The position numbers and the translations under genes were made by a program. From Candidatus Hydrogenedentota bacterium (lineage in GTDB: Bacteria > Hydrogenedentota > Hydrogenedentia > Hydrogenedentales > JAEUWI01), in NCBI GenBank assembly GCA_034669905.1, contig JAXMOL010000072.1, positions 1 through 30,729 on the forward strand: 30,729 bases of DNA, written 5' to 3'. Below the pieces are notes generated by a model. The model was not told the origin of the DNA, made no database searches, and saw only the letters and a program-made list of their open reading frames with translations. This document shows positions 7,307 to 22,773 of the stretch, piece by piece (the stretch's first letter is position 1; every line of letters begins with the position of its first letter).

Positions 7307-8083
7307 ATGTTGAGAAAAAGTAAAGCCCTCGCCAAAATTCGCGCGGGAGAGGCCGTCCGCATCTGCATGCTGGGCCACTTCATTCCCCCCTATGTCCATC
7401 TCGCGGCCCAGGCCGGGTTCGATTGCATCTGGTTGGACCTTGAGCACCGACTCATAGACGAGCGGGAAGTGCAGGCCCTGTTGGCCCAGTTCCACCTGGC
7501 CGATATCGACTGTATGCTCCGTTCACCCACCCGTGAGAAGAACCGGCTCTATCGTTATCTGGAAGATGGTGCGGCGGGATTGATGATTCCCCATGTCTCG
7601 ACCGTGGAGCAGGCCGAAGCGTTGGTGCAGGCGACGAAGTTTCCGCCCCTGGGTGATCGGGGACTGGACGGGGTCGGCTTTGATACCCACTATACCTTGA
7701 CGGATCGGGAGACCTACACGGAACACGCGAATCGTGAGACTTTTCTGGTGGTGCAAATAGAGACGCCGGAGGGGGTGAAGAACGCCGAACAAATCGCGGC
7801 CCTGGATGGTATTGCCGGACTTTTTGTGGGGCCCAGTGATTTGGGACTTCGTCTGAGCAAATTCAAGGGCCTTCCGAGCCTGGATGAATGCATCGAGCAG
7901 GTGGCCCATGCGGCGTCGCAATATGGTAAGGCCTGGGGATTGCCGGCCGGTACCCCGGAGCAATTGGCCAAGTACCACGGGATGGGCGCACAACTCTTGG
8001 CCCATGGGAGTGAGTATGGCGCCTTGAAAGGCATGTTGGACGCCAGTTCACGCCGCTTTGACGCAGCACTTGCCCCCAAATAA
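7307..8083 (+). CDS. HpcH/HpaI (class II pyruvate) aldolase family protein
   Basis: GFDCIWLDLEH, LEDGAAGLMIPHV, KFPPLGDRG, VQIETPEGV, LFVGPSDL. The ATG at 7307 (MLRKSK) is preferred over the ORF-track start at 7217. Confidence 0.9.
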   Translation: MLRKSKALAKIRAGEAVRICMLGHFIPPYVHLAAQAGFDCIWLDLEHRLIDEREVQALLAQFHLADIDCMLRSPTREKNRLYRYLEDGAAGLMIPHVSTVEQAEALVQATKFPPLGDRGLDGVGFDTHYTLTDRETYTEHANRETFLVVQIETPEGVKNAEQIAALDGIAGLFVGPSDLGLRLSKFKGLPSLDECIEQVAHAASQYGKAWGLPAGTPEQLAKYHGMGAQLLAHGSEYGALKGMLDASSRRFDAALAPK

Positions 8084-8118
8084 AAAATACCCCTGTGTGC
8101 CGGGGGGCGCACAGGGGT
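8081..8118 (-). terminator. Intrinsic terminator between convergent genes
   Basis: 13-bp stem ACCCCTGTGTGCC(8089-8101)/GGCGCACAGGGGT(8106-8118) with one imperfect pair. The A-run at 8082-8087 gives a U-tract on the minus strand. Confidence 0.75.
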
Positions 8119-8148
8119 CAAAGTAGTTGGGAAAATGCCAGGGTCCCG

Positions 8149-8892
8149 TCAGGGGGCATGGTCGCTCATGGGGGAGCACTCCGAACCGTCTTGTACCATG
8201 TTGCACCAGGTCTGGGGGTCACCGGAGTCAACGCACGAGCCGTTGGAGCACCATTTCCCATTGCCGCCCGTGGGGGCGTAGGTGCCCACGCTTTTGCTGT
8301 TGTCGAGCAGAATCTTGTTTTTTCTGGCTTGCTGCACCGATTTCCGGATGTTCCACTTGTCGGTCTGATAGAGTTCGCCCAGGGTGCGGTCGCCACAGGC
8401 TTTGATAAAGTCGTCCCATTCTGCGGTCGAGACGTAGGCATCGTTTTCCTGCATATACATGAAGGGAGTGCAGAAGTGATTCATACGTCCCCCGGCGTCG
8501 ATGAAGAATTTGCTCAACATGGAAACGATCGCAGCGAGGGGAGAATCGGCGGGGGCTTTCTGGAGGAAGAGGGTGTCCAGATGAGCGTCTTCCGGGTAGC
8601 CCGCAGCCTTTAGCATGGCCTCAATCTGGGTCAGCACACCGGTGGGGCCGACGAGTTCGGCCTTGACGTCATAGGCATTGCCATCGGGATCGGTCTGAAG
8701 GTCAGGGTGCTGATCCAGGGCATCGGCGTTGGCCATCAGTTTTCCCAGGCCCGAGGTAACGCTTCCGTCACTGAACTTATTGCTATACAGTTCGGTGTAG
8801 GTAATCCCGTCCAGCAGGTATACCATCAGGTTGATTCCCCGGGTAAGCGGTGTGGTGCGCATTTCTTTCGTGACATCACTCGGTAGCGACAT
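8149..8892 (-). CDS. Unknown protein, family X copy 1 (247 aa, 4-Cys tail)
   Basis: RGINLMVYLL, HFCTPF and C-x4-C-x8-WCN-x7-C are shared with three other ORFs in the window. RBS GAGGA; starts 63 nt after the kinase 1 stop. Confidence 0.85.
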   Translation of the reverse strand: MSLPSDVTKEMRTTPLTRGINLMVYLLDGITYTELYSNKFSDGSVTSGLGKLMANADALDQHPDLQTDPDGNAYDVKAELVGPTGVLTQIEAMLKAAGYPEDAHLDTLFLQKAPADSPLAAIVSMLSKFFIDAGGRMNHFCTPFMYMQENDAYVSTAEWDDFIKACGDRTLGELYQTDKWNIRKSVQQARKNKILLDNSKSVGTYAPTGGNGKWCSNGSCVDSGDPQTWCNMVQDGSECSPMSDHAP

Positions 8893-8955
8893 GAATGTTC
8901 CTCTGCGTTTGATTGCGGTTACTGACTACTGCCAAAAAGGATATCGGTGGGGGGA

Positions 8956-11900
8956 TCAGGTGCTCTTCAAAACGAGTTCCACATTTTGAAACATCCCCCG
9001 GGTAAGCGAGATTGAGAGCTCAAAGGATGGGTTGCCTTCGAGATGGTCCAGTGCCGTCTGGCAGAGGGTGTCGAGTTGGGTCAGCGAAGTGATGGGCTGA
9101 CCGGAGATGGCGGTGATGCGACTGCCGGGGTAGAGATGCAGGCGGGCGAGGGGCGCGTCCCAGAGCTTCTGAGTTTGTGCCAGGATCCAGTAGCCGGAAA
9201 GGGCGCCTGGGGAAAGGGGCTCACGAAGGATGGTACGGGTCCGCGCTTCGTTTACCTCGAAAATCGTGTCTGTATCGAGCCGTAGCATTTTCAGTCCCGC
9301 CTCCAGGAATGCCTGGGCCTCTTCGCGGTTCAGGGTCACGGTTTCCGACTGGGGCGGGGCAGGCAGGGTGATGAGGCGACGGGGCCTGGATTGACCATCA
9401 CGGGTCACCATGAGGTCCAGCGTGAGAAAGCTTTCGTCGGGTGCTGCGGTGGCGGCACGGTTCTGCACGGTGGTGGTGACCGCAGCCAGGTCAGCGCCCG
9501 GGAAGCGGATTTCATCGCCGTCTTGTATGCCCAGTGCCGCGAGTATTGGACCCAGGGTCTCGTTTTCCACGACGCGCACGGGGTCTTGTGTCGCGTCGGT
9601 AGCCGACCAATGCGTCAGGGTTTGGGTGAGGTCGGCGAGACGGCAGAATTGCACGGTTGCCAATGCCGTGTCTGTAGCGGCGGGTTGCACCTCCCGCTGA
9701 GCAAGCTGGACACGAAAGGCGCGCACGGTGTTTTCCAACGCTTCGCGGGTCGTGACCGGTGGTCCGTCTGGCACGGGGAGGGCCGCATAATGGGCCAGAT
9801 TGCCGTCTTTGGAGGCGACCAGGAATCCGGGGCGCTCGGGGGCGAAGAGGGCGAAGCGTGGCTCGTCCATGGGGGTTTCAATACCAATCAGGTGGAAGCC
9901 CCGGGTGGTGTTCCAGATGTTGATGCGGCTTGAAGAGACCGTCATCAGGCGGGAGCCGTCGTGGTTGAAGTCGGCCATAACGGCACGGCCCGTCTGGGTG
10001 CCCGTCTCGAAACGCAGGGTCCCCGATTCGGTATCCCATACTTGCGCACCCCCATCCGATGACACCGTGGCGATGGCGCTGCCGTCTGGCGCAAACGTGG
10101 TGTGGAGTGGGCGACCGGTGTGGCTTATCCGGAAGCGCTCTTGGTTGGTGTCCAGGTTCCATACGATGACATCACGATCGCGGGAAAGGGTGGCCAGAAA
10201 GCGTCCATCGTGGGAAAAGGCGGCATTGAGGACCGTATCGGTGTGGGCGTCGAATTGATGCAGTAGCGCGCCGCTTTCCGAATTCCAGATGCGGGCGCTG
10301 TTATCCCACGAGGTGGTGACGATTTGCGTTGCGTCTGCGTTGAAGGCCAGGGACGTGATATAGCCATCGTGCCCTTCAAAGCGCGTAAGCACTTCGCCAG
10401 AGGCAACATCCATGACGACCGCGAGAAACTCATCCACAACGACGCCCAGACGGGAGCCATCGGCATTGAGGCAGAGCCCCGTGCCATTGGGTCCGGGCTG
10501 TCGGTTGACGGTCAGCAAGGTTGTGCCCCCCTGGGTGTCCATGACCCGTACGGCACCATCGGCGCGCACAAAGGCCGCGCGATTTCCGTTATCCGACAGG
10601 GCAATGGCCACCGGCGCATAGGGGGCGGATTCCCAGAGGTGTCGGTGGGGCATGCCGCGGGTGAGCCATGTGCGGATGGCGCCCCCCCGCTCGGTCGTCC
10701 GATAGGAGGAGGTGTCGTCCATCACGGCGAGATTCAATAAGGGATTCCGTGCGCCGGTGCCCCGACTCAGGAGGCTACCGGTTTCGACGTCCCACACGGT
10801 GCGGACGCTTTCGCTATCCACGGCAAAAATGAGGGTGCCATCGGGCGAGCGCTGGCAATCCTGAATGCCTTGGCCAATGTTCAGGGTCCGCTTGACGGCG
10901 CCGGTCTCGCCATTCCAGAGTCGGACGAGACCATCCTCGGTACCCAGGAGTACGTCGGGTTCGCCGGGGTGCACCCGGGCACGTCGAATGGGCGCATCAA
11001 GGGCGATGGTGTGGCGGGTGCTCAAATCGCGGGTGTTCAGGCTGTAGGCGACACGGTCACCGGAGACGAGGAGGGTCGTGTCGTTGATGCCGCGGATGAG
11101 GCCCTGTACGTCGGCCCGGCCCAACTCCTCGCCGGTATTCGCGTCCACCGTTACGATCAGGTCTTCGGCGGTATTCACAATAAACTGTGCAGGGTCTTCC
11201 CCAAAGCCGACCCAGCGTAGTCCACCAGGATAGGCCGGGAGTTCCCGAAGAAGCTGGCCGGCCGCCACGTCCCAGAGGCGGACGATACCGTCGGAGCCGC
11301 CCGTGATGAGTTGGGAGCCATCCTTTCCGAAGGTGCACTGACTGACCTGCTGCCCGTTGGCTTCCAAAAGGGTCACCTGACCGCCCGTCTTCGGGTCCAG
11401 CAGATAGATGGCGCCGTCATAGGTGCCCAGGGCAATGTGTGCGCCGTCGGGGCTGATGGCGGCCGCCCGGGAGGTTGTACGCGGGACATTCCATTCAAAC
11501 ACGGTTTCGCCGCTTTCCCGGTCCCACAGCCGTGCGGTGGGGGCGACGGCGAGCGAAAGGGCCTGCGTTCCGTTGGGCAGATAGTGCACGGCAAAGATGC
11601 GGTCACTGTCTTCCCCGAGGGTGGCGAGTTCCTGGTTACAGAGGGTAGCCAGGTAGCTCCACTCGAAGCCCCGTCGGGAGGGCTCGGTGGTGAGTAGGAT
11701 GTCCTCGGCGTCCTGTAGTTTGCCGTCGCTTATATAGGCATTGGCCAGTCGGATTTCGGCGACGTACTTTTCGTCGGCCGTCTGGCGTTCCGCAGATTCG
11801 GCCCGTTCGCGCTCCCGTTCGGCCAGTACCCGCTGCTCGTCGGCGGCATCCCGCTGTTGCTCCGCATTGAGGCGTTCCTGTTCCGCCAGATTACGGGCCA

Positions 11901-13380
11901 CCGCCTCCAGGTTCTTGGCCTGAAGAATCCGCACGTAGGACCACGAGGCGATCACGAGGATGGCGAGGGCGGCTACGGCGGCGCTGTTCACCACGGCCTG
12001 ATGCTCGCGGTAGAGTCGGGTGAGTTTATCGCGGAGGCGGTAGGCGTAGGCATTAACGACCGCGCCTTCCAGAAAATGACGGATATCCTCGGCCAATTCC
12101 CCCGCGTTCGCATAGCGTTTCGCCGGATCGTAGGCGAGGGCCTTGTCGCAGATGGCGGCCAATTCGGGGGGCGTCTTGGGTGCCGCCGTGAGTACGGAGG
12201 GCGCGGGCGTGTGGCCTACGCGCTGCACCGTATCCCGTGAATTGCTCCAGGGGTGGGGTACTTCGCCGGAAAGAATCTCGAAGAGGACCACGCCGAGGGA
12301 GTAAACATCGGAGTGGGTACCCACGGCGTCCAACTCACTCCGTGCCTGCTCGGGCGACATATAGATCGGGGTGCCCAGCACATCCTTTGCCCGGGTATCC
12401 GCAGGCTGGACATCTTCGGGGTTGAGTTCGAGGTGCTCCAGCGTTTTCAGCAGGGCCTCACGGTGCTCGTCTTTATCGCCACCCGTTTTGGCCAAGCCCC
12501 AGTCGAGTACCACGCATTCGCCAAATTCACCCACCATGATATTGGAGGGTTTGAGATCCCGGTGGATGACGTCGCGGGAGTGGGCATACGCCATGGCCTG
12601 GCACACGTCGAGGAAGGGGCGAAGGAGACCCAGTCGCTTTTCGGGCGTGTCACACTGCGCGATTGCGGCGGCCAGGGTTTCCCCGCGGACCAGCTTCATG
12701 GTGTAGTAGAGACGGCCATCGGCCCGGGTGCCCAACTCGTAGACGGGCACGATGGAGGGGTGCTCCAGCTGGCCCGTGACCTTGGCTTCCTGAAGAAAGC
12801 GGGCCATCATGGCGGCCGACTGGCGGATGGGCGTGCTGGCACCCGCGCCTTCGGGGGCAGGAGACAGGGTGGATGCGGTGGGGTTGATGGCGTGCTCGGG
12901 AAGGAGCTCCTTCAGGATGACTTCCCGGCCAATTTGCTCGTCGTGTACCAGTAAGATGCGGCCAATGCCGCCCCGGGCATATTCCGAGCCGCCTGTATAG
13001 CGGCCAATTTGCTCGGTCGTGATATTTTCCGGACTGCGGTCGACGAGAATGGTGCCCCGAACGGTCTTGTCGGCCCCCATGTCGGGCGCATTCCTCGCCC
13101 CGCCCCGCAGCGGAGCCAGGGTGGACTCCAGTTCGCCCTTCCCCCCGAACGCATCGAGTGCGGCCTTTGCATCACCTTTGTGGGCGTGGACGAGGGTGTC
13201 CACCAGGTGAACGAGGAGGTCATGGTCGGCCTGGCTGAGGGCGCCACTGTCACACAGGTGGGACAGGGCGGAAGCATCGGGGTGCCTGGCGCCGTGGTCG
13301 GCGAATTCGGCGAGCCGGTCGCGTGAAAGAAGACGCAGTTGGTACGCCAGCAGTCCAAAGAGAATGTCGTAATCGCGCAT
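8956..13380 (-). CDS. Membrane Hanks-type Ser/Thr kinase with WD40 repeats and a C-terminal PDZ-like region (kinase 1)
   Basis: ARGGIGRI, VILKE, HRDLKPSN, DWGLAK, GTPIYMSPEQ, DVYSLG; one TM (AAVAALAILVIASWSYV); coiled coil; WD40 units such as GHDGYITSLAFNADATQIVTTSWDNSARIWN. Start set at MRDYD (13380) from the paralog alignment and promoter position. Confidence 0.92.
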   Translation of the reverse strand: MRDYDILFGLLAYQLRLLSRDRLAEFADHGARHPDASALSHLCDSGALSQADHDLLVHLVDTLVHAHKGDAKAALDAFGGKGELESTLAPLRGGARNAPDMGADKTVRGTILVDRSPENITTEQIGRYTGGSEYARGGIGRILLVHDEQIGREVILKELLPEHAINPTASTLSPAPEGAGASTPIRQSAAMMARFLQEAKVTGQLEHPSIVPVYELGTRADGRLYYTMKLVRGETLAAAIAQCDTPEKRLGLLRPFLDVCQAMAYAHSRDVIHRDLKPSNIMVGEFGECVVLDWGLAKTGGDKDEHREALLKTLEHLELNPEDVQPADTRAKDVLGTPIYMSPEQARSELDAVGTHSDVYSLGVVLFEILSGEVPHPWSNSRDTVQRVGHTPAPSVLTAAPKTPPELAAICDKALAYDPAKRYANAGELAEDIRHFLEGAVVNAYAYRLRDKLTRLYREHQAVVNSAAVAALAILVIASWSYVRILQAKNLEAVARNLAEQERLNAEQQRDAADEQRVLAERERERAESAERQTADEKYVAEIRLANAYISDGKLQDAEDILLTTEPSRRGFEWSYLATLCNQELATLGEDSDRIFAVHYLPNGTQALSLAVAPTARLWDRESGETVFEWNVPRTTSRAAAISPDGAHIALGTYDGAIYLLDPKTGGQVTLLEANGQQVSQCTFGKDGSQLITGGSDGIVRLWDVAAGQLLRELPAYPGGLRWVGFGEDPAQFIVNTAEDLIVTVDANTGEELGRADVQGLIRGINDTTLLVSGDRVAYSLNTRDLSTRHTIALDAPIRRARVHPGEPDVLLGTEDGLVRLWNGETGAVKRTLNIGQGIQDCQRSPDGTLIFAVDSESVRTVWDVETGSLLSRGTGARNPLLNLAVMDDTSSYRTTERGGAIRTWLTRGMPHRHLWESAPYAPVAIALSDNGNRAAFVRADGAVRVMDTQGGTTLLTVNRQPGPNGTGLCLNADGSRLGVVVDEFLAVVMDVASGEVLTRFEGHDGYITSLAFNADATQIVTTSWDNSARIWNSESGALLHQFDAHTDTVLNAAFSHDGRFLATLSRDRDVIVWNLDTNQERFRISHTGRPLHTTFAPDGSAIATVSSDGGAQVWDTESGTLRFETGTQTGRAVMADFNHDGSRLMTVSSSRINIWNTTRGFHLIGIETPMDEPRFALFAPERPGFLVASKDGNLAHYAALPVPDGPPVTTREALENTVRAFRVQLAQREVQPAATDTALATVQFCRLADLTQTLTHWSATDATQDPVRVVENETLGPILAALGIQDGDEIRFPGADLAAVTTTVQNRAATAAPDESFLTLDLMVTRDGQSRPRRLITLPAPPQSETVTLNREEAQAFLEAGLKMLRLDTDTIFEVNEARTRTILREPLSPGALSGYWILAQTQKLWDAPLARLHLYPGSRITAISGQPITSLTQLDTLCQTALDHLEGNPSFELSISLTRGMFQNVELVLKST

Positions 13381-13419
13381 GTTGGAAACCCCCAATTGGG
13401 CGCAAGAGTAGCTCGGGAT

Positions 13420-13448
13420 AGTGTAGCGCAATGTCGGAAAAATAGCAA
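13420..13448 (-). promoter_or_regulatory. Sigma70-like promoter of kinase 1 module
   Basis: TTGCTA(13448-13443)-N17-TACACT(13425-13420), about 40 nt upstream of the ATG at 13380. Confidence 0.6.
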
Positions 13449-13564
13449 GGCACGTAGTGTGCTGTGGGAGGGGTGTTATAGTCACTCAGCGGCGCGGCGC
13501 CACCCACGAGACACGGATGCCCTTTGCCGGAGCCAAAATGGTGGCGTGGGACGCGGGTACCGGC

Positions 13565-14431
13565 CTAATTGCCGTCGTAGAGCAGGGGGAAGAAGGTGCC
13601 ATCGAGGGCTTCACCCTTGGGTACCGGGGGCACCCCGTGCAGCAAGACATCGTCCGACACGGATTTCACACCATCGCGCACCACATTCAGGACAATGGCG
13701 CGGCGGGAACGGTGGGATTTGTTGTCGTAGGAGCCATGGACCAGCAAGGGATGGTGGAAGGCACATTCCCCCCGCTTGAGCCGGATGGGGACGGGCTTGA
13801 AGGCGGCCTTTTGTTCGTCAGAAAGGACGCTCTGGATGGCCTCCATATCTCCCGCGAGACCCGTGATAGGGAGGAGGGGCCATCGGTGGCTGCCTGGCAC
13901 GTAATAAAGACAGCCGTTTTCTTCATCGGCATCGTCCAGACCAATCCAGCAGGTGAGGTGTTGCATGGGGGACGTGCGGGTCCAATAGGAGTAGTCCTGG
14001 TGCCAGGCGACCACGCCGCCGTGCTGGGCGGGCTTACAGAAGAGTTGGTCGTGCCAGAAGCGGACCGGGCCACCGAGCAAATCGCTGGCGGCACGGGTAA
14101 AGGCGGGATTCCACAGGATATCGTGAAAGCCCGGGCTTACCCGCCAGGCACCCAGGGCGTGAAATAGCACCGTGTTGGGATCGGCAGATTCGTTGGAGTT
14201 GTACTCATAGAAGAGGTGATTGCCCGGATGCGTGGGGTCTGCCAACTCCGCCAACTCTTCACAGAGGACGTCACACTGGGTCTCCGTCAGGATACGGGTG
14301 CCCGCCACATAGCCAAACTCGTTGTAATGGGCCACCTGCTCGGGGGTGAGGTGAAAGGCGCTCTTGTCCGGCGCTTCCAGTTGTTCGCTGAACAGATCGC
14401 CCGCGGGTTGGTGTTGTGTTGCCAAGTCCAT
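13565..14431 (-). CDS. Phytanoyl-CoA dioxygenase (PhyH) family Fe(II)/2-oxoglutarate dioxygenase
   Basis: [19 protein letters not shown] (HxD), [21 protein letters not shown], distal His in LVHGS, and RRA for 2OG binding. Confidence 0.9.
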
Positions 14432-14486
14432 GACGGCGGTTTACTCCTCTACACGGGATTCAGGGTGGTATGACGACTGATAGGGC

Positions 14487-14515
14487 GTTATACAGGATCT
14501 GGTGGGGAATTCCAA
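14487..14515 (-). promoter_or_regulatory. Sigma70-like promoter of the PhyH gene
   Basis: TTGGAA(14515-14510)-N17-TATAAC(14492-14487). Confidence 0.4.
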
Positions 14516-14736
14516 GTTGGGGAAGGGGCCGGGGTGGGCTTTGTCGCAAGCCTCCACAAGCCAGGTGCCCCCCCGAAAAACCTTCGGCGTGTCGGTAGTC
14601 AGCCGTGGCAACCGTCAGGTCAAGGGCGTGTGCGCGCGCTCGCGGCGTTGGCCCTTAAGAGTCGGCCTCGCCTTCTCCCCGGGCGCCTCATGTTTAGTGG
14701 GCGGGCCCGGAGGAGAAAGCGGAGTCTTCAGGCCGA

Positions 14737-15558
14737 TCAGGGGCTGCTCGCTGCGCTACAGCTACCATTGGACGTGGAGTTACACCAGTCGTTCGGATGA
14801 TTTAAATCCTTGCAGGTGCCATTGTCGCACGTCAAGCCATTCGCGACAGGGTCGCTTCCGAAAAGCTCCACCGTTTTTTCCTCTTCTTCGTCCAAGCTGT
14901 CTTCCACTACGAAGCGGGAGCTGTGGTCGATCAGGATTTTACGATTTCGGGCGTCCCGGATCGCCTGGATTCGCTTCTCCTTTACATAGTCGGTCTTTTT
15001 CTCTGTGTAGAGGTCGACCATACGCTTATCCCCTAGTACATTCAGGAAATCTTCCAGATGCTGTGGTGGTTCGAGCCTTTTCCCCCGTTGCTGGAAGAAG
15101 CGGAAGGGGCAGCAAAAATGGGTAAGCTCACAGTTTCCGTCCTTCATGCTCGCCTGATACAGTTCATTAAGGCGAACCAGGATCTTGCGTTCCGCCCGCA
15201 CCGAGCCCGCAGAGTAAATTGCTGTGAACAGGTTTCCGAGTTTGGTTTGCGGGGCACTGTCCACATAGCCTTGGATGTCCTCAAGGGCTGTGACCATTAG
15301 GTCTCGAATCGGGTAGTGTATCCCGCTGTATGCACCCACATTGAGCAGTGCGTTGTTCGCAGGGTCATTGAGTAGCCGGGCCTGCTTCACCATTTCGCCG
15401 ATGGCGTATCCAAAGGGGTCGCTATAGAGTTGGTTGTAGGTTACGTTTTCCAGCAGGAAGCACATGAGGTTGATACTCTTGATGGTCCGCTTGACCTGGT
15501 CAGAATAATTTCCTGAAGGCATCGTTGTTTCAACATCAAAGGGTTTGGTGTAAGACAT
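14737..15558 (-). CDS. Unknown protein, family X copy 2 (273 aa)
   Basis: KSINLMCFLL, HFCCPF, CDNGTC...WCN...C tail. ATG at 15558 (MSYTKPFDV) has an AAGGA RBS and aligns with the paralog N-termini. Confidence 0.85.
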   Translation of the reverse strand: MSYTKPFDVETTMPSGNYSDQVKRTIKSINLMCFLLENVTYNQLYSDPFGYAIGEMVKQARLLNDPANNALLNVGAYSGIHYPIRDLMVTALEDIQGYVDSAPQTKLGNLFTAIYSAGSVRAERKILVRLNELYQASMKDGNCELTHFCCPFRFFQQRGKRLEPPQHLEDFLNVLGDKRMVDLYTEKKTDYVKEKRIQAIRDARNRKILIDHSSRFVVEDSLDEEEEKTVELFGSDPVANGLTCDNGTCKDLNHPNDWCNSTSNGSCSAASSP

Positions 15559-15660
15559 TACGTGTTTTCCTTGAGTTGCCGTATGCAAGCGTATGGCCTG
15601 CCCTCTTTGGGGCAGGGCTGATCGCACCGGTACGCGAAAGTGGTCGATGGAAATTTCGGG

Positions 15661-16404
15661 CTAACTGGCTATCGTGCAGTTGCCATTCTCGTCCAAATTG
15701 CACCAATCATTAGGGTCTCCCGGGTCGCAAGCGGTACCGCTGTTGCATACGTACCCGTTCTTCGGATCTTTGGTCTTTATGACGAGTTCTGGTGCAGTCC
15801 GGTCTGTGAACGTCAGGATTCCAATCGCCTTTGCAGAGTCTACTTCGTCTATTTGGCTTTGGTATTTTCCTGTTGCGTTGCTCAAGGTGTAGATGTCGAA
15901 CAGCGTGAATGCCCCCAGGTTTTTAAGGTAGGTGTTCATGCGAGTAATGGGTATGTGCCTGTTCGGGTCGTCGTATATTGGGAGAAATGGCATGCAGAAG
16001 TGGTCAAGTTTACGCGGCAGATTCCGCAATATTTCCGCGATGTCAAAATACAATCCAGTCGAGTCGGGCGCTCCCTGATGCTCAAAGTAGTGCCTTAGCC
16101 TTAGACCAGACGGACGGTATTCAGGCTCAATCAGGTCACTTATCTTCTGAAGCTCTATCGCTAAATCCGCACCCAAATCATTGTCTGTGCTTCCATCGGC
16201 AGCTATTAATAGTGAGCTTGGGAATCGGTCCAAATTGATCAAGAGCCGGTCAACTACGTTTTCGATGTGGTCATCATACAACGTTAAATAGGGGATGTTA
16301 TGGAGCAGATAGGCCATGAGATTGATCGAACGCGTACCTATTGTGTCCGCCATTGTCCGCCCGCCTCCCAGCGTATCCTTGACATCCCAGTCCCAGTAGT
16401 TCAT
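15661..16404 (-). CDS. Unknown protein, family X copy 3 (247 aa, lower GC)
   Basis: RSINLMAYLL, HFCMPF, CNSGTAC...WCN...C tail; AAGGA RBS. Confidence 0.85.
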   Translation of the reverse strand: MNYWDWDVKDTLGGGRTMADTIGTRSINLMAYLLHNIPYLTLYDDHIENVVDRLLINLDRFPSSLLIAADGSTDNDLGADLAIELQKISDLIEPEYRPSGLRLRHYFEHQGAPDSTGLYFDIAEILRNLPRKLDHFCMPFLPIYDDPNRHIPITRMNTYLKNLGAFTLFDIYTLSNATGKYQSQIDEVDSAKAIGILTFTDRTAPELVIKTKDPKNGYVCNSGTACDPGDPNDWCNLDENGNCTIAS

Positions 16405-16430
16405 TTTCTGATGTTCCTTTCGAGTAGATT

Positions 16431-16493
16431 CGGCTTCTGGGTGATGTTAACGGTGCAGGCGTCATGCTCGCCCCGTTGTACTTGCAGGGTCAG
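16431..16493 (-). pseudogene. Remnant of the 3' end of a kinase-WD40-PDZ gene
   Basis: Translates LTLQVQRGEHDACTVNITQKP versus the kinase 2 C-terminus LTLHIQRGEYEARTVTITHQP (17372-17310). Hand count gives 13/21 aa and 46/63 nt identical with no gaps. Confidence 0.8.
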
Positions 16494-16513
16494 TATCTCC
16501 GCCTTAGCCCCGC

Positions 16514-17275
16514 TCAACTGGCGGCAGTGCAGTTTCTGTCATCGTCGGCGTTGCACCAGACATTCTGTCCCGGTCTGTGGACGCAGGTTCCATTCACACA
16601 TTCCCACTCATTGAGTAGATTGACCGTATTGAATTTATCCGAGTCGTCGACAGGCTGATACGGCGCGGGCGTGTAGAAGATGCCGTTTCGCTTTGCGGCT
16701 CGAATCGCGTCGCGCTGGGGCTGCGAATAGGATTTCTTGGCCTCCGTATAGAGGTGGTAGAGCTTCTTCTTTCCGAGGGGGCCCAGGAAATCCTTCACTA
16801 ACTCGTCCTCGTCAAGCAGGTTTCCCGAAAGCTGAATGGGCATAAAAGGCATGCAGAAATGCTGTAAATCCACCGTGCTTCCGACTTTTCTCAGCTCGCC
16901 GACGGTCTCGACGAAGAGGCGGTATCTTCCAACACCGGGCGTGTATTGGCGCTTGTGGAAGAAGTGGCCGGCGATAACCCGGTCCTCAGAGGCGGGCCTG
17001 CGTGAGCGCAGCGTCGCGCGGATTTTGTTTAGGTGCTGCAGCAGGGTGGCCTTGATGGGGCGCCCGTTTCCGTGGGTGTCTTCGTCCAGGTATTTTGGCA
17101 AATGCTTCAGGTTGTCGATAATCGCGTCGAGGGCCCCGTCCACCGGTTCGCCATAGAGTTGGTTGTACGTCGTGTCCTTCAGCAGGTAGCACATGAGGTT
17201 TACACTGCGTGTGCCAACCGTGTGTGGATTCGTACCCGTTCCATAGGTCTTGGTAACATCCCAGGTCCAAGCCAT
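16514..17275 (-). CDS. Unknown protein, family X copy 4 (253 aa)
   Basis: RSVNLMCYLL, HFCMPF, CVNGTC...WCN...C tail. GGAG RBS; starts 31 nt after the kinase 2 stop. Confidence 0.85.
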   Translation of the reverse strand: MAWTWDVTKTYGTGTNPHTVGTRSVNLMCYLLKDTTYNQLYGEPVDGALDAIIDNLKHLPKYLDEDTHGNGRPIKATLLQHLNKIRATLRSRRPASEDRVIAGHFFHKRQYTPGVGRYRLFVETVGELRKVGSTVDLQHFCMPFMPIQLSGNLLDEDELVKDFLGPLGKKKLYHLYTEAKKSYSQPQRDAIRAAKRNGIFYTPAPYQPVDDSDKFNTVNLLNEWECVNGTCVHRPGQNVWCNADDDRNCTAAS

Positions 17276-17306
17276 AATTCAGTCTCCCATTTGTTCTCTT
17301 GGTGGG

Positions 17307-20300
17307 CTACGGTTGATGTGTAATGGTGACGGTTCGGGCTTCGTACTCGCCCCGCTGTATATGTAAGGTCAGGGTGAAGGTCTCGTTTGCTTCGAGGTGG
17401 CGAAGTCCGTTCTCGCACAGTGTTATGAGTTGGCTCAGCGACGTGACGGGGGTGTCATGGACGGTGAGGATCCGATCCAGGGGCTGTATCCCCGCAGCGT
17501 CAAGGAGCTTACGACCAAAGAGATTGCCCGGTACGTTTACCAGCAGCCCCGCGAGGCTGTCGGGTTTTTCCATGGGATGTCGGGCGTATTGGGCCCACCG
17601 TTTGTTCACCTGCAGGATGGCCTCCGAGTTTGACTGAAGGGTCTTGATGGCTTGCTCCAGCAGTGCCGTGGCCTGTGCGCGAGGCATGGTGATGGTGCGC
17701 GTGTTTTCCGTCACAGGAAGCATGGTGATGTTGAAGCGAGTCGGCACGCTGTTTCGCAGGACCTCGAGATAGAAGGGGGTGCCGTTTTGGTCGGGCGGGG
17801 TGCGCGTTAATGCGGTGACGTACGCGGAGAAGGCCTCGGGTGCGTTTCCGTTCAGGCTCAGAAGAACATCTCCCGCTTGAAGTGGCACCGGCCGGAAGCG
17901 GGCGGCAATATCTTCTGTAAGGGTAGGCGCCTGGTCCGCTGGCGTCGCCGTCGTCAGTGCGCTCAAGGCCGTGAGGCGCTCAATGGTCCCCGGGGCGGAG
18001 AGGATATGGTTGATCGCGCCGCCAGAGTCTGGGACCGGTTGGGACGACAGATTTGCCGCGCGCGTTGCCTTATAGGCGATCAGGTGTTCCTGTAGGCCAT
18101 CGGGCGTGCGAAGCGGGGGGGGGGTATCGATAGGAAATCCAAAAAGTCTCTTGATAGCACCACTTTCCATGGTGATGAGGAGGGTGTTGTTTTCCGAGCC
18201 GAAATCGGCATCGGTCGCCGCTTCACTGCCGGTGTCCACATCCAATAAGGCCGATCCCGTTGCCAGTTCCCAGATCCGCACCGTATGGTCGCGTGACACG
18301 GAAAGGAGCCGTTTGTCGTCCGCACTGAATGATACGGAGGTAATATCAGAGGTCTGGCCGGAAAGGTCAAACACCTTGTTTCGCGTCGAGACGCGCCATA
18401 CCTGGATCGTGTCGTCTGCAGATGCGGTGGCCACAAGATCTGCGTCATGTGAAAAGGCCACGTGGACGACGCGACCCGTGTGCTGAATCGAGAAGACTTT
18501 CGTCTGGTCCGCCCGATTCCACACGATGGCGGTTTTGTCATTGGAGGCGGTAGCGACGTGAGTACCGTCGGAGGAGAACGCCGCATGGTACACAATATCC
18601 GTGTGGCCCGCGAGAACGCCCTGCGATGCACCGGTGGTGGCGTCCCACAAGCGTGTGGTGCTGTCCCAGGAATTGGTTGCGATGGTGGTGCCATCCGAAC
18701 TGTAGTTGACACGCTGAATGTATCCGTCATGCCCTTTGAGGCGGTGAAGCACCTGCCCTTCCGGCAGTTGGAGGACGAGAGGATGGAATTGGTCTGTGAC
18801 AAGCACCAGACGGTCTCCCTGCGGCGCGATGGCGGCCTTCGTTCCCCCCAATTTCTCCGAGAACGCACCCGTGTAGATCCGTTGTCCGCTCCGAAAATCT
18901 TGGACGATGACCTGGCCATCTTGCGAGGTGGCGGCCAGTCGCGTGGCTCCATCCCGTGCGATGGAAAGTCCCGTCACGCGGTCTGTCAACGTGGCCAGGG
19001 TGCCGATAAGGGGGGAGCCAGTCGTCTTCCAGAGCCTGGCCGTTCCATCCATGGAACAGGTCAGCAGCCGCTGCCCATGCGGATCGAAATCCATCGTGGC
19101 CGTTGCGCCCCGGTGCCCGCTGAAGCGTGCGATCTCATTGGAGTTGTCCAAATCCCAAACCACGATCAAACCATTGACCGCCATGGTGATCAGCAGCCTG
19201 CCATCGGGCGCAATCTGGCATTGCCTCAGGTCTTCCCGGACGTTAAAAATCTTTTCGAGCGTACCATTCTCGGCATTCCACAACCGCGCGTTGCCATCCG
19301 CACATGCGGTGACAACGACATTCCGGTCCGCATGGTAGGTTGCCCACCTGACAGCCGCTTCGTGGGGCAGGCGCAGGACTTCGGAAAGATCGCTTGCCTG
19401 GTAGAGGAATGCATGGTTGCCTTGTCTTGCGACGAGGAAGGTGCCCGTTTTTGAGGGCTTGACGGCCATGCCGGGTGCTACGGAGAGTTGCGTGCCGTTG
19501 CCCTCGAAGAGACGGATGTGCTCGTCGGATGTCACGGTATAGAGCTTTTGTTCGCCGTCGCAGAAGCCGACGGCTTTCAGCTCGTCGGGGTGCTCGTTCA
19601 ACGTCAAGACGACTTCGCGCCCGGCCAGATCCCAGAGCTTGGCGGTGCGATCACTGCTCGCCGTAAGCAACCGGTCTCCTGCGGCATTAAAGGCGCAAAA
19701 GTTCACCGGGGCGGTATGGCCCTTAAGCATAAAGAGCGCTTCACCGGTGCCTGGATCGACCATACGAACGGAGCCATCCGTCAGGCAAAGCGCGAGCTGC
19801 GAGCCGCCTGGGTTAAACGCTACGTGCCGTAAGAGGGCATCGGAATAGGTCCATTCCTGAAGGACTGCCAGTGTTTCGCTGTCCCAAAGGCGTGCGGACT
19901 GGTCTCCGGCAACGGTCACAATGGATTTCCCATCCGGGGAGAAGAAGGTTTCGAATACGACATTGGTGTGTCCCCGCAGTGTTGCCAGATCCTGGTGGCA
20001 CTGCGCCATAAGGTAGCCCCATTCAATATGCCGGTACGCGGGATGGGTTGCCAGCAGGGTGTCTTCTGCCGCCTGGAATTGGTAGTCGCGGACATAGGCG
20101 TCCGCGAGGCGGATGTCGGAGACATATTTTTCCCGGGCAGTGCGCTCTTCCGCTGTTTCGGCGCGGGTGCGTTGCGCTTCCGCCGCGTCGCGCTGGGTTT
20201 CGGCGATGGCCCGTTGTTCTACGGCCACCACCCGGGCTTGCTCCGTCTTCTGATTGGCGCGGACGATGTTCACATAGGAGATTATCCCCATGGTGATGAT

Positions 20301-21731
20301 GACCATGGCGGCCAGACTTATGGTGTGGATCAATGTCTTGTGCTGTCGATAAACCCGTTTCAGCAGATCCCGCGCCTTGTAGGAATAGGCCTCCACCACG
20401 GCGCCGTCGAGGAACTGGTTGATGTCGTCGGCCAGTTCGCGGGCCGAGGGGTAGCGGTGCGTAGGATCGTGTTGCAGGGCCTTGTCACAGATGGCCGCCA
20501 GTTCCGGGGGGACGTCGGGCGCGGCGCTGTGGAGGGGCGGTGCGGGTAGGGTGCCCACCCGTTGCACCGTATCCAGGGTGTTGGTCCAGAGGTGGGGGAC
20601 TTCTCCGCTCAGGATTTCATAGAGGATGACACCCAGGCTGTAGACATCGGAACGGGGCCCAACAAGATCGTTTTCGGCGCGGGCCTGCTCGGGGGACATA
20701 TAGAGGGGCGTACCGAGTACTTCTTTGGACCGGGTGTGATGGGCCTGCGGGTCCTGGCCGTCCATCTTGAGTTGGTCGATGGTCTTGTTCAGGTCATCCT
20801 GATGGGCATCTTGCTCCTCCAGGACTTTCGCGAGTCCCCAGTCGAGGACGACGCATTCGCCAAACTCGCCAATCATGATGTTGGAGGGTTTGAGGTCTCG
20901 GTGGATGATGCTCTTGGAATGGGCATAGGCCATGGCCTGGCAGATGTCCAGATAAAAACGGAGGAGGGCCAGGCGGGTGTCCAGCCCGGTGCATTCTTTA
21001 ATGGCGACCGAAAGGGTGTGGCCCCGGACGAGTTTCATCGTGTAGTAGAGCTGGCCATCGGTCCGAATTCCCAACTCATAAACAGGTACGATCGAAGGGT
21101 GTTCGAGCCGTCCCGTTACCTGGGCTTCCTGGAGGAAGCGGGCCATCATGGCGGCGGACTGGCGTATGGGACTGCCGGGACTGCCGGGGGAATGGGGGCG
21201 CGACAGGGTTTCTGCCGTGGGGCTCGTGGTGTGTTGGGGGAGCAGCTCTTTCAGGATAATATCGCGGCCCATTTGCTCGTCATGGACGAGGAGGACCCGC
21301 CCGATACCGCCCCGGGCATATTCGGAGCCGCCCGTGTAGCGGCCCAGGGATTCGGGCATGATTTGGGGGGGCAGGCCGTGGGGCAGGTGTTCGGCGAGAA
21401 TAGTCTTGTCGGCCTGGGGCTGCCAGGTGCCCTCTTCAAAGTGGACGGAGTGGATGAAGGCCGATTCGACAGCTTCCTGTCCGCCGAAGGTTTCCAAGGC
21501 GGCTTTTTCGTCGCCCCGGTGGGCGTGAATGATGTTATCCACCAGGCGAATGAGGAGTTCGTAATCGGCCACCGAGAGGGCATGATTGGCGAGGAGGATC
21601 TCGGAAAGGGGATCCTCAGATTTGTCAGCCAGCGCGACGGATCGAATGAGTGAGCCCCGCGATACAAGGCGGAGCTGGCAAGCGAGTATTCCGAGGATAA
21701 GGTCGTATTCGCGCATTGCTGTGATGCTCAT
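17307..21731 (-). CDS. Membrane Hanks-type Ser/Thr kinase with WD40 repeats and a C-terminal PDZ-like region (kinase 2)
   Basis: Same motifs as kinase 1 (HRDLKPSN, DWGLAK, GTPLYMSPEQ), TM ISLAAMVIITMGIISYV, canonical GH...WD repeats. Start is 21731 or 21716 (MREYD). Confidence 0.92.
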   Translation of the reverse strand: MSITAMREYDLILGILACQLRLVSRGSLIRSVALADKSEDPLSEILLANHALSVADYELLIRLVDNIIHAHRGDEKAALETFGGQEAVESAFIHSVHFEEGTWQPQADKTILAEHLPHGLPPQIMPESLGRYTGGSEYARGGIGRVLLVHDEQMGRDIILKELLPQHTTSPTAETLSRPHSPGSPGSPIRQSAAMMARFLQEAQVTGRLEHPSIVPVYELGIRTDGQLYYTMKLVRGHTLSVAIKECTGLDTRLALLRFYLDICQAMAYAHSKSIIHRDLKPSNIMIGEFGECVVLDWGLAKVLEEQDAHQDDLNKTIDQLKMDGQDPQAHHTRSKEVLGTPLYMSPEQARAENDLVGPRSDVYSLGVILYEILSGEVPHLWTNTLDTVQRVGTLPAPPLHSAAPDVPPELAAICDKALQHDPTHRYPSARELADDINQFLDGAVVEAYSYKARDLLKRVYRQHKTLIHTISLAAMVIITMGIISYVNIVRANQKTEQARVVAVEQRAIAETQRDAAEAQRTRAETAEERTAREKYVSDIRLADAYVRDYQFQAAEDTLLATHPAYRHIEWGYLMAQCHQDLATLRGHTNVVFETFFSPDGKSIVTVAGDQSARLWDSETLAVLQEWTYSDALLRHVAFNPGGSQLALCLTDGSVRMVDPGTGEALFMLKGHTAPVNFCAFNAAGDRLLTASSDRTAKLWDLAGREVVLTLNEHPDELKAVGFCDGEQKLYTVTSDEHIRLFEGNGTQLSVAPGMAVKPSKTGTFLVARQGNHAFLYQASDLSEVLRLPHEAAVRWATYHADRNVVVTACADGNARLWNAENGTLEKIFNVREDLRQCQIAPDGRLLITMAVNGLIVVWDLDNSNEIARFSGHRGATATMDFDPHGQRLLTCSMDGTARLWKTTGSPLIGTLATLTDRVTGLSIARDGATRLAATSQDGQVIVQDFRSGQRIYTGAFSEKLGGTKAAIAPQGDRLVLVTDQFHPLVLQLPEGQVLHRLKGHDGYIQRVNYSSDGTTIATNSWDSTTRLWDATTGASQGVLAGHTDIVYHAAFSSDGTHVATASNDKTAIVWNRADQTKVFSIQHTGRVVHVAFSHDADLVATASADDTIQVWRVSTRNKVFDLSGQTSDITSVSFSADDKRLLSVSRDHTVRIWELATGSALLDVDTGSEAATDADFGSENNTLLITMESGAIKRLFGFPIDTPPPLRTPDGLQEHLIAYKATRAANLSSQPVPDSGGAINHILSAPGTIERLTALSALTTATPADQAPTLTEDIAARFRPVPLQAGDVLLSLNGNAPEAFSAYVTALTRTPPDQNGTPFYLEVLRNSVPTRFNITMLPVTENTRTITMPRAQATALLEQAIKTLQSNSEAILQVNKRWAQYARHPMEKPDSLAGLLVNVPGNLFGRKLLDAAGIQPLDRILTVHDTPVTSLSQLITLCENGLRHLEANETFTLTLHIQRGEYEARTVTITHQP

Positions 21732-21754
21732 CAGTTGGGGGGTGAACTGGGGTG

Positions 21755-21783
21755 ATAGTAAAACAAAATAGACATTTTTGCAA
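21755..21783 (-). promoter_or_regulatory. Sigma70-like promoter of kinase 2 module
   Basis: TTGCAA(21783-21778)-N17-TACTAT(21760-21755) in an AT-rich patch. Confidence 0.65.
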
Positions 21784-22020: not shown

Positions 22021-22773
22021 TCACTCTATGAAGAGAAAGCCACCAGTTTGGAGGCGGGTAGGTAGGGTATACAGGGCACCCGCCACGGAGAGGAGGAAGA
22101 GGGTCCAAAGATTGGCGCGGACTACAGCACCCAGCACTTTGCGAACGTCGAATCCATCTTTATCACGGCGGTGCATAAAGAGGATTACAGCCCCCTCAAA
22201 TACGCCACTCACTACCAGTGTCACCAGCAGGCCAAAGAATACCGCAATGTATTTCAATACCCAATAGCCGACGGCGATTCCATTGTCCGCGATGATATCT
22301 GCCGGATTCATATTCTCTGTGAGCATGAATAGTATGTAGCTGATAAACATGGCGAAACAGGTGAGCCCCGCCAGGCCAAAGCCTCCCAATATTCCGGATT
22401 TCAGATTACCCAATCGGGACACCAGCCTCCCCGCGATGGCGCCAATGAACAACATGGCTATTCCGAGGCCAATGAATGTGCTGGACGTGGAGGCGATGAG
22501 TCCTGCGATTATGACGCCGGGAACGGTGGAAACGATATTGCCCATCGCCATGTCCAGGGTTCCCCGAATGGGGCCGTAGGCTGCAAGCTGGGCGAAGAGA
22601 ATACTTTTTAGCGCGATTGCCAGAAAAAGCACGAATACCGATTTGAACAACAGTGCCCCAAAGGGGAGGGTCCCGCCGACGAAGATGAGCGTTGCCACGG
22701 GGGTACAGGCAGAGGTCGTCCCACAGCACAGAAGTATTGCAGCAATGGTCAGTATTCGATTGGTCGATTCCAT
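22021..22773 (-). CDS. Hypothetical multi-pass membrane protein
   Basis: 250-aa ORF with an N-terminal signal-like segment and roughly six hydrophobic helices; no family recognised. Confidence 0.7.
   Translation of the reverse strand: MESTNRILTIAAILLCCGTTSACTPVATLIFVGGTLPFGALLFKSVFVLFLAIALKSILFAQLAAYGPIRGTLDMAMGNIVSTVPGVIIAGLIASTSSTFIGLGIAMLFIGAIAGRLVSRLGNLKSGILGGFGLAGLTCFAMFISYILFMLTENMNPADIIADNGIAVGYWVLKYIAVFFGLLVTLVVSGVFEGAVILFMHRRDKDGFDVRKVLGAVVRANLWTLFLLSVAGALYTLPTRLQTGGFLFIE

Follow-up and report, generated by a model that had tools for sequence, protein, structure and literature searches.

Two modules on the minus strand of a 30,729-nt stretch of a Candidatus Hydrogenedentota genome (assembly GCA_034669905.1, contig JAXMOL010000072.1, positions 1 to 30,729; hereafter the window) each encode a receptor-like Ser/Thr kinase, K1 or K2, followed by one or more members of a protein family that is here named X (X1 to X4). 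Comparisons among genomes of the phylum supported X as a dedicated genomic partner of kinases predicted to combine a transmembrane (TM) helix, a double WD40 propeller, and PDZ domains. The receptor class is already known; what is new is a tandem-PDZ variant with a dedicated and exchangeable partner, which together form an undescribed two-gene signalling module. A published description of the kinase-X pair was not found in the full-text literature, the coverage of which leaves most subscription journals and supplements outside.

We give about an even chance to the reading that X is a ligand or co-receptor of the periplasmic part of the kinase and sets its activity. Each module would pair a membrane-anchored Ser/Thr kinase, whose double propeller and tandem PDZ domains form a predicted periplasmic sensor, with the X encoded behind it; by binding the sensor from outside as a ligand or co-receptor, X would control how active the cytoplasmic kinase domain is. 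The reading is based on the linkage of the two genes, the domain content, the leaders present on a third of X, the co-divergence of X with the ectodomain, and the exchange of X together with the kinase tip in two cases. As to what the WD40 sensors of the numerous membrane Ser/Thr kinases of planctomycete-like bacteria respond to, X is a concrete ligand candidate that stays with one receptor clade across the phylum and offers dozens of natural cognate and non-cognate pairs, so that the ligand question becomes directly testable with two purified proteins.

The kinases, family X, and their linkage across the phylum

Both K2 (1474 aa; 17307..21731, minus strand) and K1 (1474 aa from its ATG; 8956..13380, minus strand) comprise a Ser/Thr kinase domain, one TM helix, a double WD40 propeller, and two PDZ domains. 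On the minus strand, these parts are located at approximately 20397-21344, 20259-20324, 18147-19994, and 17310-18044 in K2, and at approximately 12061-13008, 11917-11985, 9781-11631, and 8959-9681 in K1. The kinase domains matched the Pfam family PF00069 (E-values of 1e-29 in K1 and 3e-31 in K2), and the catalytic motifs, including the Gly loop, the catalytic Lys, HRDxKPxN, and DxG, were intact in both proteins (GGIGRV, HRDLKPSN, and DWG in K2). As judged from sequence, K1 and K2 are Hanks-type Ser/Thr protein kinases. Hydropathy analysis located one hydrophobic helix after a basic stretch in each kinase, and each of the 26 full-length relatives analysed likewise showed a single peak.

An AlphaFold2 model of the C-terminal 900 aa of K1 (pLDDT 89.5, pTM 0.83) included a long propeller region, with about 15 blades in two propellers as read from secondary structure, followed by two PDZ-type domains. 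The PDZ part consists of two permuted PDZ domains; the Pfam domain PDZ_6 was found in the tails of 32 of 38 relatives, and matches to the PDZ domains of DegP and RseP were also obtained. A Foldseek search with the K1 ectodomain model returned tandem WD40 proteins of many kinds, among them Apaf-1 at ranks 28-32. The kinase domains of K1 and K2 are 69% identical, and their outside domains 16-32%.

Single-pass Ser/Thr kinases with WD40 arrays have been described in Planctomycetota, where the WD40 part is predicted to be periplasmic (PMC11032199, main text). Because of that prediction, and because a basic stretch precedes the helix, the WD40/PDZ ectodomain of K1 and K2 is, by analogy, probably periplasmic. 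The Planctomycetota proteins share with K1 and K2 an N-terminal Pkinase domain, one TM helix, and a long C-terminal WD40 array (PMC11032199, main text), but the kinases of the window differ in the two PDZ domains after the propellers and in the dedicated downstream gene family. The terms "PDZ" and "Hydrogenedent" had no occurrence in the main text of the same paper, its supplements being outside the scope. The Planctomycetota frame in which an earlier, sequence-only reading had placed the modules was not upheld, as the host belongs to Candidatus Hydrogenedentota, and the comparison is one of analogy. In the available sections of a survey of microbial PDZ proteins (PMC6411480), a histidine-kinase family was among the twelve families, while a Ser/Thr-kinase family was not.

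The four X proteins of the window are X1 (247 aa; 8149..8892), X2 (253 aa; 16514..17275), X3 (247 aa; 15661..16404), and X4 (273 aa with an ATG start; 14737..15558), all encoded on the minus strand. They are true paralogues (BLASTP identity of 26-32%, E-values from 1e-15 to 1e-29) with the common motifs NLM, HFCxPF, and four tail Cys, and they are the sole X copies in the genome carrying the window (G000; 7.4 Mb, 95.7% complete). A profile built from them retrieved 125 clusters at 50% identity, which carry no taxonomy, and the four tail Cys were invariant across 114 members. The AlphaFold2 model of X2 (pLDDT 92.1, pTM 0.90) showed a body of helices, followed by a linker of lower certainty and a tail of two hairpins.

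In line with the sequence-only reading, which had called the family unknown, X was matched to no named family. No Pfam family was common to the 114 members, the X proteins of the window had no match in NCBIfam or PADLOC, and neither a PDB profile search (best E 0.044) nor structure searches with Foldseek (best E 0.52) and VIA (best Z 3.8) produced a match; this absence does not prove a new fold. The ESM Atlas held no usable match for X2, and for a lipoprotein-type X only "hypothetical" clusters (0.86), while the clusters of ten distant X were either unnamed or labelled "hypothetical protein". Among 8000 candidates, none was a longer, fused form of X, which is weak evidence. A binding role appears more likely than an enzymatic one, since M28, C141, and Q148, core residues of catalytic appearance in close relatives, are not conserved in distant X. 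Two variants of the family were also observed. A second kinase locus of the genus relatives G001, G002, G003, G006, and G008 (L072:7940-9232 and L073-L076) encodes a 430-aa protein of two tandem X bodies with the Cys tail on the second body only, and this protein was not found in the genome of the window. Another locus (L102:5724-6917) encodes a weakly X-like protein with an extra 170-aa C-terminal region without a Pfam family, located behind a kinase paired with an extracytoplasmic function (ECF) sigma factor.

X-bearing genomes increased from 12 of 61 to 34 of 135 and then to 45 of 135 phylum genomes as the profile was widened. From the first two profile searches, 47 X-first loci were inspected, four of which ended at a contig edge and were left out of the judgeable 43. 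In 36 of these 43 loci, X was located directly behind a PDZ-tailed kinase or behind another X that is. Neighbour tabulation of the kind that the sequence-only reading had proposed thus found X mostly directly behind this kinase architecture, and X homologues were neither mostly unlinked nor matched to a characterised family. In another four of the 47 loci a kinase was present but not directly in front: one had a subtilase in between, one had a 714-nt gap, and two had X divergent beside an ECF-kinase pair. The intervening subtilase (L093:6858-8159) carries a twin-arginine-like leader.

The reverse test started from a PDZ-tail search, where the 40 best regions outside the X-first set contained 41 kinases, and nine kinases with less than 700 nt downstream were dropped. 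X was found behind 18 of the 26 kinases matched at E<1e-12 (17 clear, one weak), and the profiles did not contain these X. It was found behind none of the six weaker PDZ-tail matches and none of five other kinase-WD40 genes inspected in the genome of the window. When the 135 genomes were tallied, 46 encoded both the kinase and X, one X only, seven the kinase only, and 81 neither; in four of the seven, the kinase stops at a contig edge. A pattern scan of all genomes, which was insensitive, returned three loci.

In a FastTree phylogeny of the WD40 region, 13 judgeable X-less kinases, five of them from the genome of the window, formed one group, which also held one contig-edge kinase and adjoined the weak-X case; a further X-less kinase (L114) was placed among the X-linked kinases. 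The genomic partnership that the sequence-only reading had proposed is supported across the phylum, while its suggestion of X as a substrate has become the weaker option, as discussed below. Alternatively, X may be a co-transcribed output only, such as a secreted factor that never touches the kinase. An operon by itself is no proof of binding, X without a kinase and kinases without X both occur, and X is divergent from the ECF-kinase pair in two loci. However, the linkage extends over no fewer than seven families and over three leader types, and X-linked kinases have ectodomain features that set them apart from X-less ones, leaving this alternative quite unlikely.

Additional kinase genes were noted outside these sets. 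The genome of the window contains 22 rough open reading frames (ORFs) with the HRDxKPxN motif, and two tandem kinase-WD40 genes on another of its contigs (G000:C28 24017-30874) have neither a PDZ tail nor X. In the loci L069, L070, L088, and L091, the kinase was broken into two or three ORFs while X was intact, either through decay or through assembly error. The locus L101 (3130-7989) encodes a 1619-aa PDZ-tailed protein with no HRDxKPxN motif and no X behind it; it starts with a motif known from class III nucleotide cyclases.

Co-divergence with the ectodomain and exchange of the kinase tip

The divergence of X tracks the ectodomain and not the kinase domain. Over 42 pairs, the distance between X proteins correlated with that of the WD40 region (rho 0.44) and the PDZ region (0.42) but not with that of the kinase domain (0.05), and the partial correlations were 0.52 for the ectodomain versus -0.30 for the kinase. 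By individual domain, rho was 0.52 for PDZ2, 0.36-0.37 for the propellers, 0.14 for the kinase, and 0.12 for PDZ1. The value for PDZ1, which may be poorly aligned, breaks a simple gradient from the 3' end. A D-x-F loop in the second propeller was found in 84% and 74% of the 42 X-linked kinases, compared to 15% and 0% of the 13 X-less kinases. X may bind the ectodomain, where the D-x-F loop of the second propeller and PDZ2 may form the binding site. Two tandem kinases of G011 share 91-93% identity inside the cell and 17-21% outside, and they are followed by different X. Complex prediction for X1 with the K1 ectodomain 336-900 (second propeller and both PDZ domains) scored 0.00 in two runs that lacked folded controls, and this is evidence neither way.

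These patterns bear on whether X, at least where it is leaderless, instead acts in the cytoplasm on the kinase domain, as its substrate or inhibitor, which we regard as rather unlikely. Two thirds of X are leaderless, 62 of 76 X have a conserved Ser four residues past the fourth tail Cys, and cytoplasmic zinc could be bound by the four Cys, with no Dsb system found. However, this Ser is also conserved in 13 of 15 Sec-type and eight of nine Tat-type X, and near-identical kinase domains are accompanied by unrelated X, as in G008 and G002, where the kinase domains are 98% and the X proteins 22% identical. A substrate role is the weaker option because exported X exist and because X tracks the outside domains.

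The same two genomes provided one clear case of a swap of the kinase tip together with X. Segment by segment, the identity of their kinases is 63-93%, but only 23% over the last 43 residues; at the DNA level, it drops to about 40% from roughly 150 nt upstream of the kinase stop. In the window, the spacer between X2 and X3 contains a duplicated and decayed copy of the 3' tip of a K2-type kinase (LTLQVQRGEHDACTVNITQKP; 16431..16493, minus strand, upstream of X3), which was identified by DNA alignment and covers the last 20 codons (score 62, compared to a maximum of 39 in 300 shuffles). The remnant could be aligned, too, with the end of the kinase in front of the X3 orthologue in G005. In that genome, the K2 orthologue is directly followed by the X3 orthologue (69% identity to X3) and shares 84% identity with K2 over the last 43 residues. 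Since the K2 orthologue directly precedes the X3 orthologue in G005 and the tips match, X3 is likely the original partner of K2 by descent, and X2 was probably inserted between the two, duplicating the kinase tip. X4 shares 49% identity with an X of G005. X1 remained paired with K1 in G007 and G004, with identities of 83% and 68%. A tip remnant was found in only one of ten inter-X spacers, and exchange is therefore not general.

The exchange recalls the orphan cdiA-CT/cdiI modules and Rhs cassettes, in which a 3' tip and a small downstream gene are likewise exchanged or left duplicated (available sections of PMC4725963). X could accordingly be viewed as an immunity or decoy protein of inter-bacterial conflict, with orphan cassettes as in contact-dependent inhibition (CDI) and Rhs systems and with extra copies that would recognise alleles from other strains or give protection from them. 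The arrays of up to three divergent X, the remnant before X3, and the drop of identity between G008 and G002 agree with this role. However, the upstream gene encodes a membrane receptor whose C-terminus is a tandem PDZ rather than a toxin domain, there is no two-partner or Rhs delivery, and the remnant is confined to the one spacer. Orthologous X are under purifying selection, with ratios of nonsynonymous to synonymous substitution (dN/dS) of 0.08-0.19 in four pairs (0.08 for X1, 0.19 for X3), and no positive selection was found in pairwise dN/dS. The GC content of X was below that of the kinase in 52 of 57 pairs, marking low GC as a family trait; a recent foreign origin of X3 and X4, considered for their low GC, is unsupported for the same reason. 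No relatives of X were found in viral, phage, or plasmid collections. A conflict role, which the sequence-only reading had allowed for, is thus unlikely, and no sign of it appeared in the selection, PADLOC, or mobile-element analyses.

Export of X and the side of the membrane

Leaders were called on 79 X by a heuristic of hydropathy and motifs, which assigned a Sec or lipoprotein-like leader to 17, a Tat-like (twin-arginine) leader to nine, and none to 53. In a quick unrooted IQ-TREE phylogeny of 74 of 78 rows, the Sec-type X formed one branch (SH-aLRT 90), and the Tat-type X required five changes, at least two of them forced by strong branches. TatC is present in the genome of the window. A twin-arginine motif before the kinase TM helix, by which X might be carried along, was not seen, and the region is similar in X-less kinases. 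The occurrence of Sec-type, Tat-type, and leaderless X behind one receptor type may point to an uncommon route of export or to a signal of membrane damage.

The tail Cys mostly number four, six, or eight. The count was even in 69 of the 76 X examined here and in 97 of the 114 representative members, and an added CC was usually matched by a terminal Cys, a pattern that fits disulfides. VKOR was found in 20 and DsbB in one of the 135 phylum genomes, and most of the phylum seems to be without a standard disulfide-forming system; metal binding by X is possible. X may accordingly be a metal- or redox-sensing subunit, where the four to eight tail Cys would hold zinc or another metal and where oxidation or metal exchange would switch the kinase. 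The four invariant Cys, the CC and CxxC motifs of Sec-type X, and the lack of detected Dsb machinery in most X-bearing genomes agree with such a sensor, and Tat leaders often accompany cofactor-loaded proteins. However, the rise of Cys in pairs also fits disulfides, and a generic sensor would leave unexplained why many paralogues of 25-30% identity occur behind one kinase; we hold this role to be distinctly unlikely.

The tail region, which consists of a variable Gly-rich linker, a near-invariant Asn, and a 30-aa Cys-rich tail, could also be that of a precursor of ribosomally synthesized and post-translationally modified peptides (RiPPs), whose Cys/Ser tail would be cut off or modified as a peptide; the Tat-leader subtilase between kinase and X in one locus could be read in the same way. 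Such a role is very improbable. AlphaFold2 was confident over the tail of X2 (pLDDT 93-96, pTM 0.90), suggesting that the tail packs on the core of a folded protein of 250 aa, and no modifying enzyme or transporter occurred as a conserved neighbour. The matches to the class III/IV lanthipeptide synthetases LanL and LanKC were limited to about 110 residues of the kinase, at 19-66 bits compared to cut-offs of 575-650.

Several observations weigh against X as a ligand or co-receptor. X1-X4 are all leaderless, like 53 of the 79 X overall, and in 52 leaderless X the open frame ahead of the core, which comprises 25 or fewer codons in 32 of them, contained neither a hydrophobic stretch nor RRxF. A type VI secretion system (T6SS; VipB and Hcp, G000:C9, about 41500-43400) was found in all nine genomes of the genus and in none of the 126 other phylum genomes; being confined to the genus (nine of 135 genomes), it cannot carry the leaderless X of other genera and was rejected as a general export route. 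No DsbB, VKOR, or DsbA-like gene was found in the genome of the window, neither DsbB nor VKOR was found in three families holding Sec-type X, and the roughly predicted exported proteins of this genome showed no even-Cys bias (0.457 versus 0.460), such that disulfides in X are not established. As for the linkage, three of the 47 X loci had no kinase in the examined stretch, eight of the 26 PDZ-tail kinases had no X, and the counts are not independent and allow no statistical test, because the profiles came from linked loci and the genomes are kin. The X gene adjoins the 3' end of the kinase gene, and linkage alone can therefore give the tracking of the ectodomain, or at least part of it. The pairing is not strict, as one kinase can have up to three X, and in G006 and G008 the kinase tips are 68% alike while the X proteins are only 28-31% alike. 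The purifying selection on orthologous X counts on the same side.

In the ligand or co-receptor reading, leaderless X, including the four in the window, would reach the side of the ectodomain. One way in which this could occur, by analogy, is a compartment-breach alarm, where leaderless X would be produced along with the receptor but kept in the cytoplasm and would reach the periplasmic propeller upon puncture of the inner membrane or lysis of kin; we consider this version unlikely. Comparable cases are cytochrome c reaching Apaf-1 and a leaderless alarmin reaching its receptor kinase. Swapped X cassettes would then let one receptor answer the alleles of several strains. If true, the alarm would represent a bacterial receptor kinase system with a protein ligand for damage or kin sensing.

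Known systems and the layout of the window

Periplasmic accessory regulators of membrane sensors are known in CpxP-CpxA and RseB-RseA, and X as a ligand or co-receptor would be alike in that a small co-encoded protein tunes a membrane sensor from outside. The X system differs in the kinase class, the lack of a sequence or fold match, the several divergent copies, and the many leaderless members. The plant receptor kinase SRK with its linked, polymorphic, Cys-rich ligand SCR provides another analogy, in which a receptor and a small Cys-rich partner are likewise linked and polymorphic. Apaf-1, with cytochrome c as its ligand, shares the tandem propeller of 15 blades, a likeness that is common to many tandem WD40 proteins and shows no function. 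In contrast to both analogies, X has no homology to either ligand.

Matches to the anti-phage kinase systems PD-T4-6, MADS, and BREX PglW were limited to the kinase region, with NCBIfam scores far below the cut-off, and X had none. The term "Hydrogenedent" had no occurrence in the available text of two surveys of conflict systems (PMC7159879, PMC8195603), the supplementary tables of which could hold such neighbourhoods. Kinase-associated ECF groups (available sections of PMC7826278) involve a related kinase type, and an ECF gene adjoined the kinase in five of 87 loci scanned (L083, L096, L102, L130, and L132). They differ in that X is not a sigma factor and that no such ECF occurs here: the window encodes no ECF, in agreement with the sequence-only reading, and the five kinase-adjacent ECFs had no tblastn match at 1e-6 in the genome of the window.

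On the minus strand of the window, the genes are arranged in the order K2, X2, X3, X4, a PhyH-family gene, K1, and X1, with gaps of 31 nt between K2 and X2 and 63 nt between K1 and X1. A read-through fusion of kinase and X was rejected, as K2 and X2 are out of frame and an in-frame stop separates K1 from X1. Predicted sigma-70-like promoter sites precede K2 (TTGCAA-17-TACTAT; 21755..21783, minus strand) and K1 (TTGCTA-17-TACACT; 13420..13448, minus strand). Each agrees with the consensus at eight of 12 positions, which is under the scan cut-off, and the pattern TTG-N17-TAxxxT was located at an equal distance upstream of all nine genus kinases examined, K1 and K2 included. The listed ORF of K1 begins further upstream, at a GTG (13485) beyond the promoter-like site. 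The duplicated order of promoter, kinase, and X that the sequence-only reading had described was confirmed, with a single X in module 1 and three X in module 2.

Module 1 is closed by a hairpin with a T-run that resembles an intrinsic terminator (8080..8119, minus strand; z -2.1, with seven of 200 shuffles as good). A long GC-rich hairpin without a T-run follows X4 (14659..14738, minus strand; z -3.8, with none of 200 shuffles as good) and possibly marks the end of module 2. An Rfam search of the window returned no match. The gene between the modules (13565..14431, minus strand) encodes a PhyH-family dioxygenase (Pfam PF05721). It borders the locus in several relatives of the genus and in none of the loci of other families; it was regarded as a genus-level neighbour and not counted as part of the system. 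Neither this gene nor the duplicated kinase tip before X3 appeared in the sequence-only reading.

Two other genes of the window were noted. Upstream of K2, a 250-aa ORF (22021-22773, minus strand) encodes a multi-helix membrane protein without a match in Pfam, NCBIfam, or PADLOC, and a BLASTP match to it was absent at the X-first loci. Additionally, a FAD oxidoreductase gene (3587-5470, minus strand) showed a synonymous divergence (dS) of 0.19 relative to G007, compared to 1.1-1.9 for the adjacent genes, which suggests that it was recently exchanged.

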